Of a stretch of 64,000 bases of DNA, positions 2,950 to 62,037 are shown piece by piece (position 1 is the stretch's first letter; every line of letters begins with the position of its first letter). Under the pieces are notes generated by a model. The model worked only from the letters and a program-made list of their open reading frames with translations, was not told the origin of the DNA and searched no databases. Origin of the DNA: a phage; NCBI GenBank assembly GCA_016658885.1, contig GCA_016658885.1_4807.1. One strand, 5' to 3'. Position numbers and translations under genes: made by a program.

Positions 2950-3320
2950 TTGAAGCGTATCATGACGTATCATCCGTATTGCCGCAAGTCTTTGTTTTTA
3001 CTTATATATTACGGATGATACGTTAAATATATAAATTAACATAAGTATGAGGATGTAGAAAAAAATTAATTTAAATTAATTCAAAATGGAGTTAATTAAT
3101 TTTTCAAATTATATATATAACGATGCCCAGTTTTATCCGTATCATCCGTAAGATTAATGTACAAGCCAGGCGCGGCAAGGGCTGTACACTGATACGGATA
3201 AAAAACCATGACGTATCATGACGTAAGGGTGTACCAATTTGGAAAGGATGAATCCAGGAACGGCGCGGCCTGTAGCCATGATACGCTTAATTTTTAACCG
3301 TATTTTAAGCGTATCAAATG
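2950..3320. promoter_or_regulatory. iteron-like hub A: tandem/inverted 9-bp repeats (ACGTATCAT / ATCCGTATC family) flanking an about 100-bp core of over 90 percent AT
   Basis: cgtatcatgacgtatcatccgta (2955-2978), tacggatgatacg (3010-3022), AT core 3025-3125 with AAATTAATTTAAA palindromes, atccgtatcatccgta (3133-3150), catgacgtatcatgacgta (3209-3227). Confidence 0.55.
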
Positions 3321-7492: not shown

Positions 7493-7540
7493 AGTATAAT
7501 ACAGGCAAATAAAAAGGCAAGCATTTAGCTCACCTTTTTG
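7493..7540 (-). promoter_or_regulatory. repeated promoter module copy 1 (TTGCCT-N16-TATACT with conserved upstream CAAAAAGGTGAGCTAAATGC)
   Basis: About 60 bp near-identical to 8996-9047; sigma70-like hexamers on minus strand upstream of gene 7168..7464. Confidence 0.45.
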
Positions 7541-8995: not shown

Positions 8996-9047
8996 GTATA
9001 AGTATTGATAAAAGAAAAGGCAAGCATTTAGCTCACCTTTTTGATAT
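8996..9047 (-). promoter_or_regulatory. repeated promoter module copy 2 (TTGCCT-N17-TATACT)
   Basis: Near-identical to 7493-7540; here followed by an 18-codon mini-ORF (MLAFSF...) then gene 8715..8963. Confidence 0.45.
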
Positions 9048-14756: not shown

Positions 14757-14963
14757 CTTTATTCCTTAACAAATTCAGAGTAGTATTGGGCCGCAGCCGC
14801 TTGATGGTGAGCCATGACGCCTTGAAGGGTCGGAAGCTCTACTGGTTTAGGTTCTAAAAACTTTAACAGACCTTCAACCTCGATGTTCAATTCTTCGCTT
14901 TGCATAAATCACCTCTGCTTCAGTTCATAAAATGATTATAGTTGCTATAAAAATAAAAGCAAA

Positions 14964-16046: not shown

Positions 16047-16206
16047 CTTTCTTTCCTTTGGTGATCAATACCTGCAGTATAATATTGAGTGATACAAAGT
16101 CAACAATATTTACCATTTAGTTCACAATTTCGATTTACTTTGCTTTATACTATATCTGCAATTATACTATCAGAAAATATTTCCGCACTAACAAAGGTCG
16201 CCTGAA
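16047..16206. promoter_or_regulatory. AT-rich divergent promoter region between leftward early operon and rightward replication operon
   Basis: Strand switch; several TATAAT/TATACT-like hexamers (ctgcagTATAATatt, ctttATACTat). Confidence 0.4.
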
Positions 16207-17772: not shown

Positions 17773-17807
17773 TCGCCGCCAGAGTTTTTAGTTGCTACTG
17801 GCGGCGA
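17773..17807 (+). other. GC-rich hairpin (10-bp stem, 15-nt loop) between helicase gene and the Lys/Ala/Glu-rich gene
   Basis: tcgccgccag...ctggcggcga; no downstream T-run. Confidence 0.4.
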
Positions 17808-17876
17808 CTGAAGGCATAATTAAGTTATCCCAAACGGGGAATATAAAATAAACTAATTTATTTAAGGACTGTGAAC

Positions 17877-18743: not shown

Positions 18744-18770
18744 GACCCACACTTGTTGTGGGTCTTTTTT
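18744..18770 (+). terminator. rho-independent terminator
   Basis: gacccaca-cttgt-tgtgggtc followed by tttttt. Confidence 0.7.
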
Positions 18771-18848: not shown

Positions 18849-19844
18849 ATGAACATGAAACAACCTGTAATGATTATCGGCGGCGGATTGGCAGGACTTA
18901 TCACAGCGTGTCACTTCCCGAACTCTATTGTGTACGAAGCAGGGGAGCGAGCGCAACAGCACAAGGCGCTGCTACGCTTTCGCGGCGAAGAAGTAAGCCG
19001 TATTACCGGAATCCCTTTTAAGGCCGTGACAGTTGACAAGGCTGTGTATTTTCGCGGCAACTACTACCACGACCATTGCCCAATCAACCTTGCCAATATG
19101 TATTCCATGAAGGTCACCAATCAATTTGGCAGCCGTTCAATCATGAAGCTTAAGACTGCAACGCGTTATATTGCGCCTGACGACTTTTATGATCAGCTTG
19201 TCGACAAACTGGGTGACCGCATATTCTTTAATACTCCGGTCGATACTCTTTGCGGCTATAGCGAGACGCCAATCATCAACACGTCGCCGCTGCCAGTCAT
19301 GATGAAGCTGGCTGGTATTGATCAGAATCTTGACTTTTCATTCGATAAAGCAAACATTCGCGTTTACCGCTTTAAGATTAAACGTAAGTGTGAACTTTAT
19401 CAAACCATTTACTTTCCTGACTACTCCGTCAGAACTTACCGCGCTTCAATCACTGGCGACACATTGATCATTGAAACAATTCCTTTGGTTAGCGTAAGTG
19501 AAGCCGCAGTTGAAGCCGCTGGCGGCATTACTCGTTACCGTGACATTAAGTTGCGTGCAGAAGTTGACGAAGTGTTGACGGCCTTTGGTCTATCATGGAG
19601 TGACATCGCTCTCGAAGAAGTTGAGAAGGTCGACCAGAAGTATGGCAAGATTGTCGACATTCCGAAAGACTTGCGACACGCTCTACTCCTACAACTTACC
19701 ATGGATTTGAACGTGTTTAGTGTCGGTCGCTTTGCTACCTGGCGAAACATTTTGCTTGATGACGTTGCTCATGACCTTGTTGAAGTTGAAAAACTCATCA
19801 AAGCAAATAACTATCAAAAATTTGCTTATATTGCTAATAAATAA
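18849..19844 (+). CDS. putative FAD/NAD(P)-binding oxidoreductase
   Basis: 331 aa; N-terminal Rossmann dinucleotide motif VMIIGGGLAGL; start may be second ATG at 18855. Confidence 0.45.
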   Translation: MNMKQPVMIIGGGLAGLITACHFPNSIVYEAGERAQQHKALLRFRGEEVSRITGIPFKAVTVDKAVYFRGNYYHDHCPINLANMYSMKVTNQFGSRSIMKLKTATRYIAPDDFYDQLVDKLGDRIFFNTPVDTLCGYSETPIINTSPLPVMMKLAGIDQNLDFSFDKANIRVYRFKIKRKCELYQTIYFPDYSVRTYRASITGDTLIIETIPLVSVSEAAVEAAGGITRYRDIKLRAEVDEVLTAFGLSWSDIALEEVEKVDQKYGKIVDIPKDLRHALLLQLTMDLNVFSVGRFATWRNILLDDVAHDLVEVEKLIKANNYQKFAYIANK

Positions 19845-19889
19845 TTTGCTTTCTGCTTCAATGGGCGTATACTTTAATCATTGAAGCAG
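19845..19889 (+). promoter_or_regulatory. candidate promoter (TTTGCT-N16-TATACT) embedded in an 11-bp-arm palindrome
   Basis: ctgcttcaatg (19853-19863) / cattgaagcag (19879-19889) flank the -10 hexamer; upstream of gene 19911. Confidence 0.4.
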
Positions 19890-19910
19890 AACTCATAAGA
19901 GGAAACGAAA

Positions 19911-20357
19911 ATGAAACGCATCACTGGAATCGCTCTTGCCGCAACTGCTATTCTCGGCACCATGTATATGGAAGCGACTGAAGCCGCTGTCCGTACTTCC
20001 GATTCAATCGCCGTGTATGATTGCGAAGCGATGGACGGTAAAACCGCAGCAACCACTGGCGCAACTATCACGGCTTACATCGGCGTGAACGAGCAAGAAG
20101 GTCTGAATATTCAGATTCAAGGATTCACAGGGAAAGGTGCCAACCGTACTCCGTGGATGCAGCGTTTCACTTTCGTTCAGCCTCGTTCAACTGGCGGCTT
20201 TATCAACTTGATTGGTGAAAACCGTTCTGGTGCAGAAATCTTTACATCAATGAGTTCTAATAATGAACCAAAGAAAAGTTTTCAGTTGCTTTATAACGCA
20301 CAATTCGTTTATCATTGCACCTTCTCTGGTGATCAGCAACTAGTGAATTACCGTTAA
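19911..20357 (+). CDS. predicted secreted protein
   Basis: 148 aa; AAGAGGAAA SD; N-terminal signal-peptide-like MKRITGIALAATAILGTMYMEA. Confidence 0.5.
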   Translation: MKRITGIALAATAILGTMYMEATEAAVRTSDSIAVYDCEAMDGKTAATTGATITAYIGVNEQEGLNIQIQGFTGKGANRTPWMQRFTFVQPRSTGGFINLIGENRSGAEIFTSMSSNNEPKKSFQLLYNAQFVYHCTFSGDQQLVNYR

Positions 20358-20370
20358 TAGGATAATTAAA

Positions 20371-21174
20371 ATGAAAGTTGAATTAATTCGATACACCCAA
20401 GATGCACTTGACCTTTTGCTGGAAACAAAGAACACGCGCATGACTGGTAAGCCCGTCTCTGAGATGACAGAATCAGAGAAGCAAGAGCACTGGCGCTATA
20501 TGCTTGACACCATCAAGTCACCTTTTGACTTTGTGGACTATATCTTTGATATCACTGATGTATCAAAGAACATGACCCATCAGATGGTACGCACACGCAC
20601 AGGCGCATATCAAGAACGCACCAGCCGCGCGCAGGAGTCATCTGCTTTTGATGCGATTCGTCCGAAAGCGTTTGAGTATGACGACCCTGACAGGGTTATC
20701 GGCGAGCGAATCGACGAGCAGCGTTTGAAGTTGGCTAACACATGGGACGACGCCATGGCGACCATTGACGCCCTATACCAAGAACTTCGCGCGGCTGGCG
20801 CAGAGATTCAAGATGCACGTGCCGTTTTGCCTTCTAATATGCAAACTCATATCATGGCAAAGTTCAACTTGCGCACGCTGCAACAGATGGCGTCAAACCG
20901 CTTGTGCACGCGCACACAAGGCGAGTATCAAGAAGTATTTCGCGCAATGGTTGCGGAAGTCCTCAAGGTGCACCCGTGGGCTAATCCTTTACTACAGCCG
21001 CAATGCATCGGTATGGGTAAATGCGCGTTTCCTCGTCACGGCAAAGCCCATTGCCCTTGGTATCGTGATTGGATGGATACTACGGCACAGCAAGAAGAGT
21101 TGCGCATCCAGTTTTGGAATGCGATGCCAATCACCAACAATCCAGTTGCTAAAGATGGAGTATCAAAAGGATGA
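20371..21174 (+). CDS. ThyX-family (flavin-dependent thymidylate synthase-like) protein with variant motif
   Basis: 267 aa; C-terminal DARAVLPSN...NLRTL...NRLCTRTQGEYQEVF resembles ThyX; expected RHR(x7)S signature reads RTRTGAYQERTS. Confidence 0.5.
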   Translation: MKVELIRYTQDALDLLLETKNTRMTGKPVSEMTESEKQEHWRYMLDTIKSPFDFVDYIFDITDVSKNMTHQMVRTRTGAYQERTSRAQESSAFDAIRPKAFEYDDPDRVIGERIDEQRLKLANTWDDAMATIDALYQELRAAGAEIQDARAVLPSNMQTHIMAKFNLRTLQQMASNRLCTRTQGEYQEVFRAMVAEVLKVHPWANPLLQPQCIGMGKCAFPRHGKAHCPWYRDWMDTTAQQEELRIQFWNAMPITNNPVAKDGVSKG

Positions 21175-22043
21175 GCATTAAAAACAGCGAAATCTTAAAC
21201 GTATTCGACCTTGACGGAACGCTGTTTGATGATCGTTGGCGCTTAGACCGCATTAAGGTGGCAGGTCCGTTGTCAGACTATGATGATTATCACAGCGGTA
21301 TTGGTTATGATCAGTTCTATCCTCACATTGCATCAGCAGTAGAGTCGGCATCTCTTCGCGGTGAGGCGGTTGAATATTGGACTGCAAGGCCAGAAAAATA
21401 CAGACAAGTGACTTTTGAACGTCTGGACAATGTTTTTCCTTTTGATGAATTTACAATCAAGATGAGAGACTATGGCGACAAACGTACATCAACTATTATG
21501 AAATCTGCATGGCTATCGCACGCTTTGCGGCACGGCGATTATCGAATCATCAATGTATTCGACGACCGACAAGACGTACTCGCGCGGATGCAAGATGAAG
21601 CATTGTATTATAATTCCGTTGCTCAAAATAAAATCGCTTTTACATTTAATCTTTGCAAGGCAGGTGAAGTGGTGCAACAATTAGCAATTGATCCAAGCGC
21701 AACAGGGCAAGAAGAGACTAAGGCTGTGGAAGTTGAACAATCTCCGGCAACTGCCGCCGATATTCTTGATGCAATGGCAGCAACCTTCCGTGAGCGCAAC
21801 GCTGTCTATGGCGATAACGCTGTGATGGTAGGTCAGGTTATGCAAGTGCTTTTCCCTAATGGCGTGACGTTGAAAACGCCGGAAGACTACCACATGTGGC
21901 ATCTGTTCGAGCTTAAGATTGTCAAGCTTACACGCTTCGCAATCAGCGGCCTGAAGCACGAAGACTCTATACACGATGATGGTGTTTACAGCGCCATGTG
22001 TGAACGTCTTGTTAACACCCATAATATTAATTTCAATAAATAG
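21171..22043 (+). CDS. HAD-superfamily phosphatase-like N-domain fused to unknown C-terminal domain
   Basis: 290 aa; motif I VFDLDGTLFDD, later FDDRQD; ATGA overlap with upstream gene. Confidence 0.45.
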   Translation: MSIKNSEILNVFDLDGTLFDDRWRLDRIKVAGPLSDYDDYHSGIGYDQFYPHIASAVESASLRGEAVEYWTARPEKYRQVTFERLDNVFPFDEFTIKMRDYGDKRTSTIMKSAWLSHALRHGDYRIINVFDDRQDVLARMQDEALYYNSVAQNKIAFTFNLCKAGEVVQQLAIDPSATGQEETKAVEVEQSPATAADILDAMAATFRERNAVYGDNAVMVGQVMQVLFPNGVTLKTPEDYHMWHLFELKIVKLTRFAISGLKHEDSIHDDGVYSAMCERLVNTHNINFNK

Positions 22044-22087
22044 TTTACTTGTGCGTTTCGATGAGTTATATTTATCTCATCGAAACG
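22044..22087 (+). promoter_or_regulatory. candidate promoter (TTTACT-N17-TATATT) embedded in a perfect 12-bp-arm palindrome
   Basis: cgtttcgatgag (22054-22065) / ctcatcgaaacg (22076-22087); related element at 29343-29385. Confidence 0.45.
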
Positions 22088-22108
22088 AAGTCCAAAAAGG
22101 ATAAATAA

Positions 22109-22792
22109 ATGAAAAAAGTAATTGTTGTAACTGGCTGCAATTCCGGTCTTGGTAAATCCATTTTTGACACCCTTGGCGCTTACGGTCATGAAGTTGTCGG
22201 TATTGATTTGGAGAACGGCTATGACATCCGTAACGCGAAACAGATGAAAGAGCTTCTCTCTCAATACGACGTAGAAGGCTTGATCAACTGCGCTGGCGTC
22301 AACTCCAACAACTGGTTCGAAGATGTTAACTACGAAGAGTTCAATCGCGTTATGCACACCAACGCCTTCTCTTTCGTCAACACGACTCAGGCCGCGCTGA
22401 AAAGTCTTATTGACAACAAAGGTTTTGTGATCAACATCGTTTCCAACGCTGCGCATATTCCTATGACGTCCAGCTTGTGTTATAATGCTTCCAAGGCTGC
22501 TGCGCTCATGATTAGCAAGCAGATGGCTCACGAGCTTACGCCTAAATACGGGATCACGGTATTCTCTATTAGTCCTAACAAGCTACGTGGTACTGGCATG
22601 TCCAAACAGATTGAAGATGCTGTTTGCGCGACTCGCGGCTGGACTCCTGAATACGCTGCTGAATACCAGAAAAAGGCACTGATGAATGGATTGGAGACTG
22701 AGCCGCAAGTAATTGCTGACTTCATTCGCCATATCTTAATTACGGGCGCATGGCGCTTTATGTCTGGTACTGATATTCCATTCGGTAAATAA
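22109..22792 (+). CDS. short-chain dehydrogenase/reductase (SDR) family oxidoreductase
   Basis: 227 aa; TGCNSGLG (TGxxxGxG) and YNASK (YxxxK) motifs. Confidence 0.65.
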   Translation: MKKVIVVTGCNSGLGKSIFDTLGAYGHEVVGIDLENGYDIRNAKQMKELLSQYDVEGLINCAGVNSNNWFEDVNYEEFNRVMHTNAFSFVNTTQAALKSLIDNKGFVINIVSNAAHIPMTSSLCYNASKAAALMISKQMAHELTPKYGITVFSISPNKLRGTGMSKQIEDAVCATRGWTPEYAAEYQKKALMNGLETEPQVIADFIRHILITGAWRFMSGTDIPFGK

Positions 22793-22888
22793 ATCACGAA
22801 AATTTGAGGTTGTCACACCCGCTCCTGAAAAGAAACAGGACGAAGACGACACAGTAATTAATCAATAATATTTAATTAAGGAAACAAA

Positions 22889-23440
22889 ATGCCACATTTT
22901 AAAATTGAACAAATCGCCCTGTCAATTCCAGGTGCTCAGCGCGCACAGAATTTCCTGGCTAAAATCGGCCTGACAGAATGGTTCCATGATCACGTTGTTG
23001 CTACTGGTCGCGTATTTGAAGCTGATGTCTTTAAGGGTCAGCGCGGCGATTGCACCAACGAAGCTGACTTGCGCTTCAACTATCAGGCTGGCAACGGCAC
23101 CGATGGCGGCGCTGGTAAGCCTCTTGAGCTTGAAATTCTTGACTATACAAAAGGTTGCAACTGGATTCACGAAAACATCGAATACATCGATGCGCACGAC
23201 AATCAGGTTAGCCATCTTGGTATGCACGTGACTGCCGCTGAACTTGCTGAATGGCGCAAGTTCTTTAAAGAAGAAGGCATTCAGGTTGCGCAGGAAGTTG
23301 TGACCGACTCTCACACCAACCCAAACATTGCTGGTCAGCGTCGTTACAACTATGTAATCTTTGATACTCGTGAAATCATCGGTGTCGACCTTAAATTCAT
23401 CGTACGGTTGAATCAAGACGGTACTCCGTACACTGTATAA
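22889..23440 (+). CDS. hypothetical protein, possible VOC (glyoxalase-like) fold
   Basis: 183 aa; two-half pattern (KIEQIALSIPG..., HLGMHVTAAE..., YVIFDTREIIGVDLKFI) loosely resembling VOC modules. Confidence 0.3.
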   Translation: MPHFKIEQIALSIPGAQRAQNFLAKIGLTEWFHDHVVATGRVFEADVFKGQRGDCTNEADLRFNYQAGNGTDGGAGKPLELEILDYTKGCNWIHENIEYIDAHDNQVSHLGMHVTAAELAEWRKFFKEEGIQVAQEVVTDSHTNPNIAGQRRYNYVIFDTREIIGVDLKFIVRLNQDGTPYTV

Positions 23441-29342: not shown

Positions 29343-29385
29343 TTGACTTGTCACGGAAGATGAGTCATAATTACTTCATCGAAAC
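29343..29385 (+). promoter_or_regulatory. candidate promoter (TTGACT-N17-CATAAT) with conserved downstream TCATCGAAACGAA box
   Basis: Shares TTGACTTGT...gatgagt...tcatcgaaacgaa with the 22044 element. Confidence 0.4.
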
Positions 29386-29403
29386 GAAATAGAGTAATAC
29401 AAA

Positions 29404-29667
29404 ATGGTACGCATCCTTGAACGTTACAAAAATGAAGCTACTGGCGCAATCGCGTTCAAACGTCTTTTGGTCAAAGAAATTGACGGTCTGTTCCGCGTTG
29501 TAAAAGAGTTTGATTATGGCAACGTTGCTGGGGTGAATACCGTCATTATGCCTGGCATCAAGGCATATAAAACCTTAAAAGGCGCTGAGAAGGCTTTGGC
29601 GGCTTGGAAACCTGAACGTTATCAAATGACCCGTGTTGAAGGTCTAATGCAAGAAGGTAAAATATGA
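29404..29667 (+). CDS. hypothetical protein
   Basis: 87-aa ORF. Confidence 0.45.
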   Translation: MVRILERYKNEATGAIAFKRLLVKEIDGLFRVVKEFDYGNVAGVNTVIMPGIKAYKTLKGAEKALAAWKPERYQMTRVEGLMQEGKI

Positions 29668-33303: not shown

Positions 33304-33479
33304 CACACTGGATAAATAATTGGTGCGTATAATCTATCGCGCCGTTTTCTAGAATTTAATATACAGTGTATACATAAAGCCGGAAATTTCCGGCTTTTCT
33401 TTTATTTACCTTTCGCCTTATTTACTTTCAAAACCTTCGGCCTATACTATTAATATTCGTAATCAAAAGGTGAATTATA

Positions 33480-41464: not shown

Positions 41465-41521
41465 AGACTCCTTATATCTGATCAACAAATTATAATCTAT
41501 AAGGAGTCTATAAGCAATATT

Positions 41522-55929: not shown

Positions 55930-56215
55930 ATTAGTGTGATACGGATGATACGGATAAAATGAGGCGTATTTTTATCCGTATCGGTGTATAAGCCGCGCTA
56001 TCACTGGTGTGCTACGGATGATACGGATGATACGGATACTTTTCATATATAAGAGTTTATAAAAAAAATAAAATTAAATTAGATATATAATTTTAAATTA
56101 ATTTATTTGAATTCCTATAAAGTATCGCGGCAACGCGTATCATCCGTATCATCCGTAAGATTCTTTTGAAAACAACTACTTACTTGATACGGATGATACG
56201 TCATTATACGCGTGA
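55930..56215. promoter_or_regulatory. iteron-like hub B: tandem/inverted 9-bp ACGGATGAT repeats flanking an about 85-bp AT-rich core
   Basis: gatacggatgatacggat (55937-55954), tacggatgatacggatgatacggatac (56013-56040), AT core 56041-56125, cgtatcatccgtatcatccgta (56136-56157), gatacggatgatacg (56187-56201). Confidence 0.55.
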
Positions 56216-61929: not shown

Positions 61930-62037
61930 GACTTTCCAATTATGTGTTAATATTTATTCATATTATAGTTTGCTTGAGACAGCTATATCAAGTAAAATTG
62001 TGATTCCAGCTTAGTAGTGGATAAAGGGTGATCTTTT

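Follow-up and report, generated by a model that had tools for sequence, protein, structure and literature searches.

Predicted promoters overlapping inverted repeats between tandem genes of a phage related to Wifcevirus

We analysed a 64,000-nucleotide stretch of phage DNA (NCBI GenBank assembly GCA_016658885.1, contig GCA_016658885.1_4807.1; hereafter the window), in which a first-pass annotation had described three promoter-like elements lying in perfect palindromes, at 22044 (site 1), 19845 (site 2) and 29343 (site 3). Sigma-70-like promoters combined with stem-loops are a real, statistically solid and non-random feature of the window. The explanation towards which we lean, with modest confidence, is that they form compact promoter and stem-loop cassettes, in which the hairpin would bound the upstream transcription unit and the promoter would restart transcription for the next gene. 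Judged from the sequence, RNA hairpins are a more probable interpretation of the palindromes than sites bound by a repressor, and the reading of the hexamers as promoters is plausible and phylogenetically supported, although all of these promoters are predicted ones.

The statistical evidence was obtained by counting and by folding. The window contains six perfect inverted repeats whose arms measure 11 bp or more (loops of 3-25 nt), against 0.27 +/- 0.77 expected from 30 dinucleotide shuffles. The RNA folding z-scores were -5.8 for site 1, -4.3 for site 2 and -3.0 for site 3, and a further site in the baseplate block, at 41517, reached -5.6. When 23 intergenic promoter-like sites were folded, z fell below -3.3 only at 17792, 19845, 22044 and 41517. 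All four of these strongly structured promoter sites lie between tandem genes, and none of the sites classed as between divergent genes was among them. The arm sequences are each unique in the 64-kb window, where they were found only as their own pair.

Sites 1 and 2 share one anatomy (Table 1). The -35-like hexamer stands just 5' of the palindrome, the 5' arm occupies the spacer, the -10-like hexamer is in the loop, and the expected start site is covered by the 3' arm. Site 1 has perfect 12-bp arms and a 10-nt loop made up of A and T only (10/10). The hexamers, the 17-nt spacer (N17) and the 12-bp arms first described for this site were all recovered; the -35 lies outside the palindrome, so that the -10 alone is enclosed. 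At site 2, TTTGCT and TATACT were likewise found together with their palindrome, with arms of 13 bp instead of the 11 bp proposed and a spacer of N17 instead of N16; a spacer of 16 is obtained only with the -35 taken as TTGCTT. The description of promoters in perfect palindromes holds for these two sites and fails for site 3, which has only a 6-bp arm pair around its -10, GATGAG (29359-29364) and TTCATC (29375-29380), including one G.T. An alternative RNA hairpin at site 3 (TGACTTGTC/GATGAGTCA) contains two G.U pairs, and a pair of the GATGAG/TTCATC type is also kept in Pantoea phage PA1.

The boxes that site 3 was said to share with site 1 are present: ACTTGT and an exact TCATCGAAACGAA (29376-29388 at site 3) are common to both, and TTGACT-N17-CATAAT was read as described. 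In the window, TCATCGAAACGAA occurs only at sites 1 and 3, and their ungapped identity of 35/48 is the best non-self match. By their sequence, sites 1 and 3 are paralogues. Transcription is predicted to start at an A 7 nt past the -10, at 22079, 19880, 29378 and 41482, as inferred from standard sigma-70 geometry. Direct reading showed AATTTCAATAAATAG, ATTGCTAATAAATAA, ATATCAAAAATAAT and CGCTAAAATA upstream of the cassettes, and AAAGGA, AAGAGGA or AAGGAG followed by ATG downstream of them. The stem leaves the ribosome-binding site free at sites 1 and 2, where it is located 5-8 nt further 3'.

In the cassette explanation, host sigma-70 RNA polymerase would start at the A about 7 nt past the -10, either within the 3' arm or immediately 5' of it. 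Transcripts initiated at the promoter would then lack the 5' arm, and with it the hairpin, which would be possible in read-through transcripts alone. Transcripts derived from upstream would carry both arms and would fold into a stable hairpin (predicted at -19 to -27 kcal/mol). Such a hairpin could mark the 3' boundary of the upstream unit by attenuation or pausing, by protection of the 3' end or as a processing site, and expression of the downstream gene would then be governed mainly by its own promoter. The gaps between the same-strand genes that hold the cassettes measure 65, 66, 74 and about 60 nt, and promoter and hairpin would overlap because such a gap is too short for both side by side. 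The enclosure of the -10 is probably incidental and not a recognition geometry. The register of the hairpins varies (in the spacer, around the -10, around the -35), which argues against mechanisms that need a fixed polymerase geometry. We also counted as support that in two hairpins of the same genome, each followed by a U-tract, the 3' arm doubles as the -35 of the promoter behind it (7511-7539 and 9015-9041).

At the baseplate-block site, the 3' arm holds the ribosome-binding site AAGGAG (41473-41468) and extends into the start codon ATG, so the hairpin would in addition bury the downstream ribosome-binding site in read-through RNA. This arrangement would also suit translational gating, in which the hairpin in a polycistronic RNA controls ribosome access to the downstream gene and not 3' ends, and translation requires either coupling with the gene upstream or the transcript made from the promoter itself. 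The position of the 5' arm is compatible with such coupling, since it begins 6-10 nt past the upstream stop in all three long palindromes (sites 1 and 2 and the baseplate-block site) and a terminating ribosome would begin to open the stem. However, the ribosome-binding site is outside the stem at sites 1 and 2, and the palindrome ahead of the baseplate gene in the related locus L026 contains no ribosome-binding site. We consider gating an unlikely explanation of the cassettes.

The phage was placed by comparison with database records. Segments 19000-23000 and 17500-42000 of the window showed about 93-96% identity to 29 Escherichia/Shigella phage records, most of them classed as Wifcevirus (FEC19, WFH, ECML-117, Mansfield, Bas98-101). 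Wifcevirus phages are little-studied virulent myoviruses of about 68 kb, distantly related to Pseudomonas Pbunavirus, and unusually fast replication has been reported for them (PMC11990801). Gene names in the window were transferred from annotated relatives. The three flagged sites lie within a plus-strand block of replication and nucleotide-metabolism genes. Site 1 is flanked by a polynucleotide kinase/phosphatase gene and a FabG-like reductase gene, site 2 by a UDP-galactopyranose-mutase-like gene and an orphan gene of 148 amino acids, and site 3 by a helicase gene and an orphan gene of 87 amino acids.

Conservation within the genus was assessed by aligning Wifcevirus genomes, 12-15 per site. 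The palindromes proved conserved, as the first-pass annotation had expected of functional sites, and the intergenic cassettes hardly vary. Across the three long palindromes, 1 of 78 arm sites and 4 of 46 loop sites are variable. In the stem at 17773, after the Dda-like helicase gene, most of the genomes have T where the window has C opposite G, which gives a G.U pair in sense RNA; one genome carries a second C-to-T that keeps pairing, and one carries a disruptive G-to-A. The two C-to-T changes keep pairing in sense RNA only. As a whole, the within-genus pattern offers weak evidence of constraint and does not separate the mechanisms.

The comparison across genera used IMG/VR loci (labelled with L and a number) together with the GenBank genomes of Serratia phages MTx and Hera (Myosmarvirus) and Pantoea phage PA1 (Kylevirus); orthology of the intergenic positions was established from the flanking proteins. 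MTx, Hera, PA1 and uncultured relatives all have a sigma-70-like promoter with an inverted repeat at equivalent intergenic positions. The hexamers are retained at orthologous positions in distant relatives, and the surrounding sequence has diverged. The repeats themselves vary between genera in sequence, in length, in loop size and in register to the -35 and -10 (Table 1). On these alignments, pairing is conserved across lineages and the sequence of the arms turns over.

For the compared loci we estimate about 13 perfect repeats of 8 bp or more per 20 kb, which corresponds to a chance of about 4% that a given 70-nt gap holds one. This figure bears on the possibility that the palindromes have no function and are tolerated by-products of template-switch (quasi-palindrome) mutation in free spacer DNA. 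Perfect and lineage-specific arms are what recent templated copying would leave. At site 1, moreover, the 3' arm matches a conserved sequence of the 5' untranslated region (5' UTR) in MTx and PA1 (TATCTCATC, AACGAAG), so that this arm appears ancestral and the 5' arm in the spacer new, the lineage-specific half that would have created the pairing. Nevertheless, a stem-loop stands at equivalent promoters in at least five diverged lineages, against that chance of about 4% per gap, and the arms are less variable than the loops within the genus. Templated mutation could explain the origin of the perfect arms; it leaves unexplained why stem-loops appear at the same sites in at least five lineages, and a complete lack of function is in our judgement quite improbable.

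The same comparison bears on the case for operators, in which a dimeric phage or host repressor would bind the palindromes over the -10 and the start and bring about a timed shut-off during infection. The dyads of sites 1 and 2 centre at about -9, a classic position for repression, and their half-sites can both be written TTCRATG / CATYGAA with a centre-to-centre distance of 21-22 bp. A palindrome can also double as terminator stem and repressor site, as with LexA at yobI/ruvA. Yet apart from this motif the arms of different sites are unrelated and none recurs elsewhere in the 64 kb, the palindromes at 41517 and 17773 have nothing in common with those of sites 1 and 2, and site 3 is conserved despite the loss of most of its dyad. 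The arms are also unrelated at the orthologous sites in MTx, Hera, PA1, L008, L009 and L026, so an operator would need a separate protein for each site and lineage; arms that are unique and unrelated across lineages cannot be accounted for by a single dimeric repressor. A search of 20 early or unknown proteins for Pfam DNA-binding domains returned none (two hits were sub-threshold and irrelevant; many small proteins have no assignment), and the portions consulted of the annotation of the relatives Mansfield and Bas98 list no regulator. The suggestion that the palindromes are typical operators of a dimeric repressor is therefore disfavoured, on the unrelated arms, the variable positions and the DNA-binding domain not found in those 20 proteins, and we regard it as highly improbable.

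Table 1. Promoter and hairpin features of the window and their counterparts at orthologous intergenic positions in related phages.
Feature	Genome or locus	Position	Strand	Sequence and arrangement
Site 1, -35-like hexamer	Window	22044-22049	+	TTTACT; one base past the stop TAG (22041-22043) of the upstream kinase/phosphatase gene
Site 1, 5' arm	Window	22054-22065	+	CGTTTCGATGAG; in the promoter spacer, about -25 to -14
Site 1, -10-like hexamer	Window	22067-22072	+	TATATT; in the hairpin loop, 17-nt spacer from the -35
Site 1, 3' arm	Window	22076-22087	+	CTCATCGAAACG; covers about -3 to +9
Site 2, -35-like hexamer	Window	19845-19850	+	TTTGCT; directly after the stop codon (19842-19844)
Site 2, 5' arm	Window	19851-19863	+	TTCTGCTTCAATG; 13 bp, perfect
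Site 2, -10-like hexamer	Window	19868-19873	+	TATACT; in a 15-nt loop, 17-nt spacer
Site 2, 3' arm	Window	19879-19891	+	CATTGAAGCAGAA; 13 bp, perfect
Site 3, predicted promoter	Window	29343-29388	+	TTGACT (29343-29348), N17, CATAAT (29366-29371)
Baseplate-block site, predicted promoter	Window	41517-41463	-	TTGCTT (41517-41512), N17, TATAAT (41494-41489)
Baseplate-block site, arms	Window	41511-41498 / 41476-41463	-	ATAGACTCCTTATA / TATAAGGAGTCTAT; perfect 14 bp, 21-nt loop with the -10
Site after the Dda-like helicase gene	Window	17773-17820	+	Arms TCGCCGCCAG (17773-17782) / CTGGCGGCGA (17798-17807), 10 bp
Hairpin (two G.U) followed by U-tract	Window	7511-7539	-	The following promoter takes its -35 TTGCCT (7520-7515) from the 3' arm
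Second copy, hairpin and U-tract	Window	9015-9041	-	Overlaps the -35 TTGCCT (9023-9018)
After the mutase-like gene	MTx			TTGACG-[ATGGCGCT atta AGCGCCAT]AAT; hairpin in the spacer
After the mutase-like gene	L008			TTGACG, then GTGTACGTTTG...GATAAT...CAAACGTACAC; arms around the -10
After the mutase-like gene	PA1			TTGACA-N17-GATAAT; inner spacer hairpin and outer TTAGTTGA/TCAACTAA
After the helicase gene	L009			CGGGTTAC-ggCATAATtgct-GTAACCCG; -10 in the loop
After the helicase gene	L008			TGCCGTAAGT-ttgc-ACTTACGGCA; ends at the -10
After the helicase gene	MTx			Three copies: GACGGCAA/TTGCCGTC/GACGGCA
After the helicase gene	PA1			GATGAA..CATACT..TTCATC
Before the FabG-like gene	PA1			ACGCCGTA-gaaaa-TACGGCGT, then ATCTTTATCTCATC
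Before the FabG-like gene	MTx			GGCCA-agga-TGGCC
After the Dda-like helicase gene	MTx, L007			TTTGGGGAA/TTCCCCAAA in MTx, TGGGAATTC/GAATTCCCA in L007
Before the baseplate gene	L026, L027			GACACC-ggcGATAATat-GGTGTC

The closest counterparts known to us from the literature are the promoter-early stem-loops (PeSLs) of the T4-like phages RB49/phi1, T4/PST and KVP40/nt-1 (Arbiol et al. 2010, PMC2839356; Comeau et al. 2014, PMC4122927). A PeSL combines a strong sigma-70-like early promoter and an AT-rich upstream region with a stem-loop and is associated with orphan genes, and a cloned PeSL stem-loop lowered read-through to a degree comparable to the rrnB T1 terminator (PMC2839356; PMC4122927). The cassettes of the window resemble them in the sigma-70-like promoter with 17-nt spacing, in the short intergenic gap and the AT-rich stretch 5' of the -35, in a stem-loop that lies between the -35 and -10 or overlaps the -10, and in ending, on the 3' side, with a ribosome-binding site and a start codon. 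At sites 2 and 3 they may likewise stand ahead of lineage-specific orphan genes, and some copies are paralogous. The T4/PST form, TTTACW...N17...TAYWAT, resembles site 1. The phage analysed here is, however, not T4-like; its stems are longer (12-14 bp) and AT-richer, and its loops are larger. Termination and recombination between copies have been shown for PeSLs, whereas the cassettes of the window are predictions from sequence.

Promoter-coupled terminators, which a 2026 preprint reports to be widespread between tandem bacterial genes, provide a second point of reference (Fletcher et al. 2026, bioRxiv 10.64898/2026.08.19.745784). Their stem lies over the -35 and their T-tract in the spacer, and termination occurs at most 35 bp, mostly about 10 bp, upstream of the start (bioRxiv 10.64898/2026.08.19.745784). 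Both designs place a stem-loop and the next promoter on the same DNA between tandem genes and so shorten the gap, and several of the spacer hairpins of the relatives end at the -10, as in coupled terminators. The hairpins at 7511-7539 and 9015-9041 match exactly in sequence, with the stem over the -35 and the T-tract in the spacer. At the flagged sites, in contrast, the stem extends across the -10 and the start site instead of the -35, no T-tract is found, and the stem ends at about +9 to +20, so that any 3' end would fall downstream of the start. Operators of the LexA and lambda type resemble the flagged sites in having a dyad near -9 over the core promoter and differ from them in that here there is no common or conserved half-site and that arm length and spacing vary.

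Of the two roles that the first-pass annotation had offered for the palindromes, the RNA hairpin is the better supported, by the conserved pairing, the position in tandem gaps, through which transcripts from upstream would run, and the match to PeSLs. Its weak point is the long stems, where a U-tract is absent. Direct reading found none after the three long palindromes on either strand, and with 10-21-nt loops as well they would be poor intrinsic terminators by the usual rules. Several further results weigh against the cassette explanation. All 39 core pairs of the three long palindromes (39/39) are Watson-Crick pairs with no G.U, which would fit a constraint at the DNA level or a recent origin as well as a role in RNA; in the hairpins of the relatives about 10% of the pairs are G.U. 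In 18 promoter hairpins from six lineages, the sense fold contained 26 G.U pairs and the antisense fold 21, which is no asymmetry. Compensatory change within the genus was not shown, as variation among the 12-15 genomes per site is too low. PeSLs are numerous, have a consensus stem in each phage (e.g., Gn-loop-Cn) and are clustered in hyperplastic regions, whereas here about five cassettes in 64 kb have no common stem consensus. Finally, the Wifcevirus transcription literature yielded in-silico promoter prediction only (the vB_Eco4M-7 paper), and no transcript mapping was found in it. An intrinsic terminator in either orientation was rejected for the long palindromes on the absence of the U-tract from both strands, and an Rfam scan of 17000-42500 with E up to 1 returned no family.

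The perfect pairing of the cores invites a reading at the level of DNA, in which the repeats extrude as hairpins or cruciforms in negatively supercoiled or transiently single-stranded DNA and thereby create a supercoiling-dependent promoter or serve replication or recombination (cassette exchange, compare the mini-circles of PeSLs). The cores are Watson-Crick throughout, over 12-14 bp and with no G.U, the centres are AT-rich, and the hairpins are stable as single DNA strands (DNA folding z of -6.1 to -7.2; -10.5 to -12.7 kcal/mol). Also in its favour are the paralogy of sites 1 and 3 and the apparently lineage-specific orphan genes behind sites 2 and 3. Long loops make cruciform extrusion costly, though, and the loops here measure 10-21 nt. 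The register to the -35 and -10 differs among lineages, unlike a precise promoter geometry. The relatives and the hairpins at 7520 and 9023 use G.U pairs, which do not exist in DNA, and the 17773 stem has T.G in most Wifcevirus genomes in place of the C-G of the window. No breakpoints of insertions or deletions were seen at the cassettes among the Wifcevirus genomes aligned. Extrusion of this kind appears to us quite unlikely.

A more specific form of the DNA-level reading is that the spacer, under negative supercoiling or after melting of the AT-rich -10 centre, pairs with the start region on the same strand, so that host-type promoters would be switched by the topology or replication state of the phage DNA; we rate this as very unlikely. 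If true, such DNA-switched promoters would be the natural equivalent of the engineered promoter regulated by a cruciform, and would parallel the N4 hairpin promoters in a sigma-70 form. The promoters of the N4 virion RNA polymerase have stems of 5-7 bp, 3-nt loops and a conserved sequence and require the phage polymerase, and in Frpo of the F plasmid the -35 and -10 are rebuilt as duplex within the stem. The likeness to these systems lies in a promoter function tied to an intrastrand DNA hairpin. In the window, by contrast, the stem excludes the -35, a large loop contains the -10, and ordinary sigma-70 hexamers have 17-nt spacing in the duplex. An N4-type or single-strand promoter was rejected because the anatomy is wrong.

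Composites of promoter and stem-loop are known from T4-like phages and, recently, from bacteria, and had not been described before in this phage group. If the cassette explanation is true, the composite design also organises expression in myoviruses unrelated to the T4-like phages (Wifcevirus, Myosmarvirus, Kylevirus and uncultured relatives), with rapid turnover of the stem sequence and retention of pairing. The long palindromes would then be test cases for the effect on read-through of a hairpin without U-tract that lies over the -10 and start, and the predicted start sites and transcription-unit boundaries would be usable for annotating phages of therapy interest.

The flagged sites stand among other arrangements of promoter and hairpin in the window. 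The inverted-repeat scan added two instances to those flagged, the baseplate-block site and the site after the Dda-like helicase gene; in the latter the loop contains the -35 TTGCTA (17792-17797), and the -10 CATAAT follows at 17815-17820. The hairpins at 7511-7539 and 9015-9041 are formed by a 27-nt element, AAAAAGGTGAGCTAAATGCTTGCCTTTT, that occurs twice in the early gene block, and each precedes a promoter of the form TTGCCT-N16/17-TATACT; their G.U pairs would pair only in sense RNA. On sequence, the two are of the promoter-coupled terminator type in its textbook form. In other gaps, terminator and promoter are separate elements that stand one after the other, e.g., 18744-18764 and 33376-33397. 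Taken by prediction, nearly every promoter between tandem genes in this phage is accompanied by a hairpin, and no predicted version is more compact or closer to perfect than the flagged sites.

A -35 region of the form TTTGCTT(T/A) was observed at many intergenic promoters, at 14962, 16139, 19845, 41517, 59750, 59789 and 61970, and may be a phage-specific -35 preference. At 16139, this region is exactly TTTGCTTTA, which recalls the MotA box of T4 but stands 15 nt from the -10 versus about 12. The identification of TTTGCTTT as a T4 MotA box was rejected on this distance.

The 5' UTRs behind the flagged promoters share a further box. In the 64 kb, GAAACGAA has three copies, at 19902-19909, 22082-22089 and 29381-29388, all of them in these 5' UTRs. 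The related CGAAACGAA(G) also follows promoters in PA1 (L033, after the Dda-like gene) and in L009 (17792-17800). By sequence, GAAACGAA/CGAAACGAA would be a conserved 5'-UTR box, explained in part by orthology and paralogy. As a general motif, GAAACGAA was rejected, since it is confined to the three sites and is explained by 5'-UTR orthology and paralogy.

The genes behind site 2 (19911-20357) and site 3 (29404-29667) had no tblastn homologue in L006-L009. In these four loci, other small genes occupy the slots behind the cassettes of sites 2 and 3, which would be variable gene slots.

After the helicase gene, loci of the MTx group carry an 8-mer three times (L006, 16793-16850; L007, 16796-16850), as GACGGCAA/TTGCCGTC/GACGGCA. 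The middle copy holds the -35 of a promoter TTGCCG-N17-CATAAT and can pair with either neighbour. The triplet looks like an attenuator-like pair of alternative hairpins, as far as the sequence indicates.

Elsewhere in the window, a 9-bp motif, GATACGGAT, has ten exact copies, all in the intergenic clusters 2965-3203 and 55938-56194. The copies occur in tandem (GATACGGATGATACGGAT) and in both orientations, which produces long inverted repeats, and they adjoin a very AT-rich segment at 56050-56115. In sequence, the array looks like replication-origin iterons or a regulator-binding array. Near-identical strong promoter-like repeats, gtgcTTTACTtcttcgtacact..TATAAT..tatatcgagaNggg, were found at 264 (-), 662 (-) and 707 (+), two of them divergent; they are probably the early promoters near a genome end. 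At 61970-62000, in a gap between divergent genes, opposed promoter-like sites overlap within the same 30 bp, with TTGCTT-N17-TAAAAT on the plus strand and TTGATA-N18-TATAAT on the minus strand.

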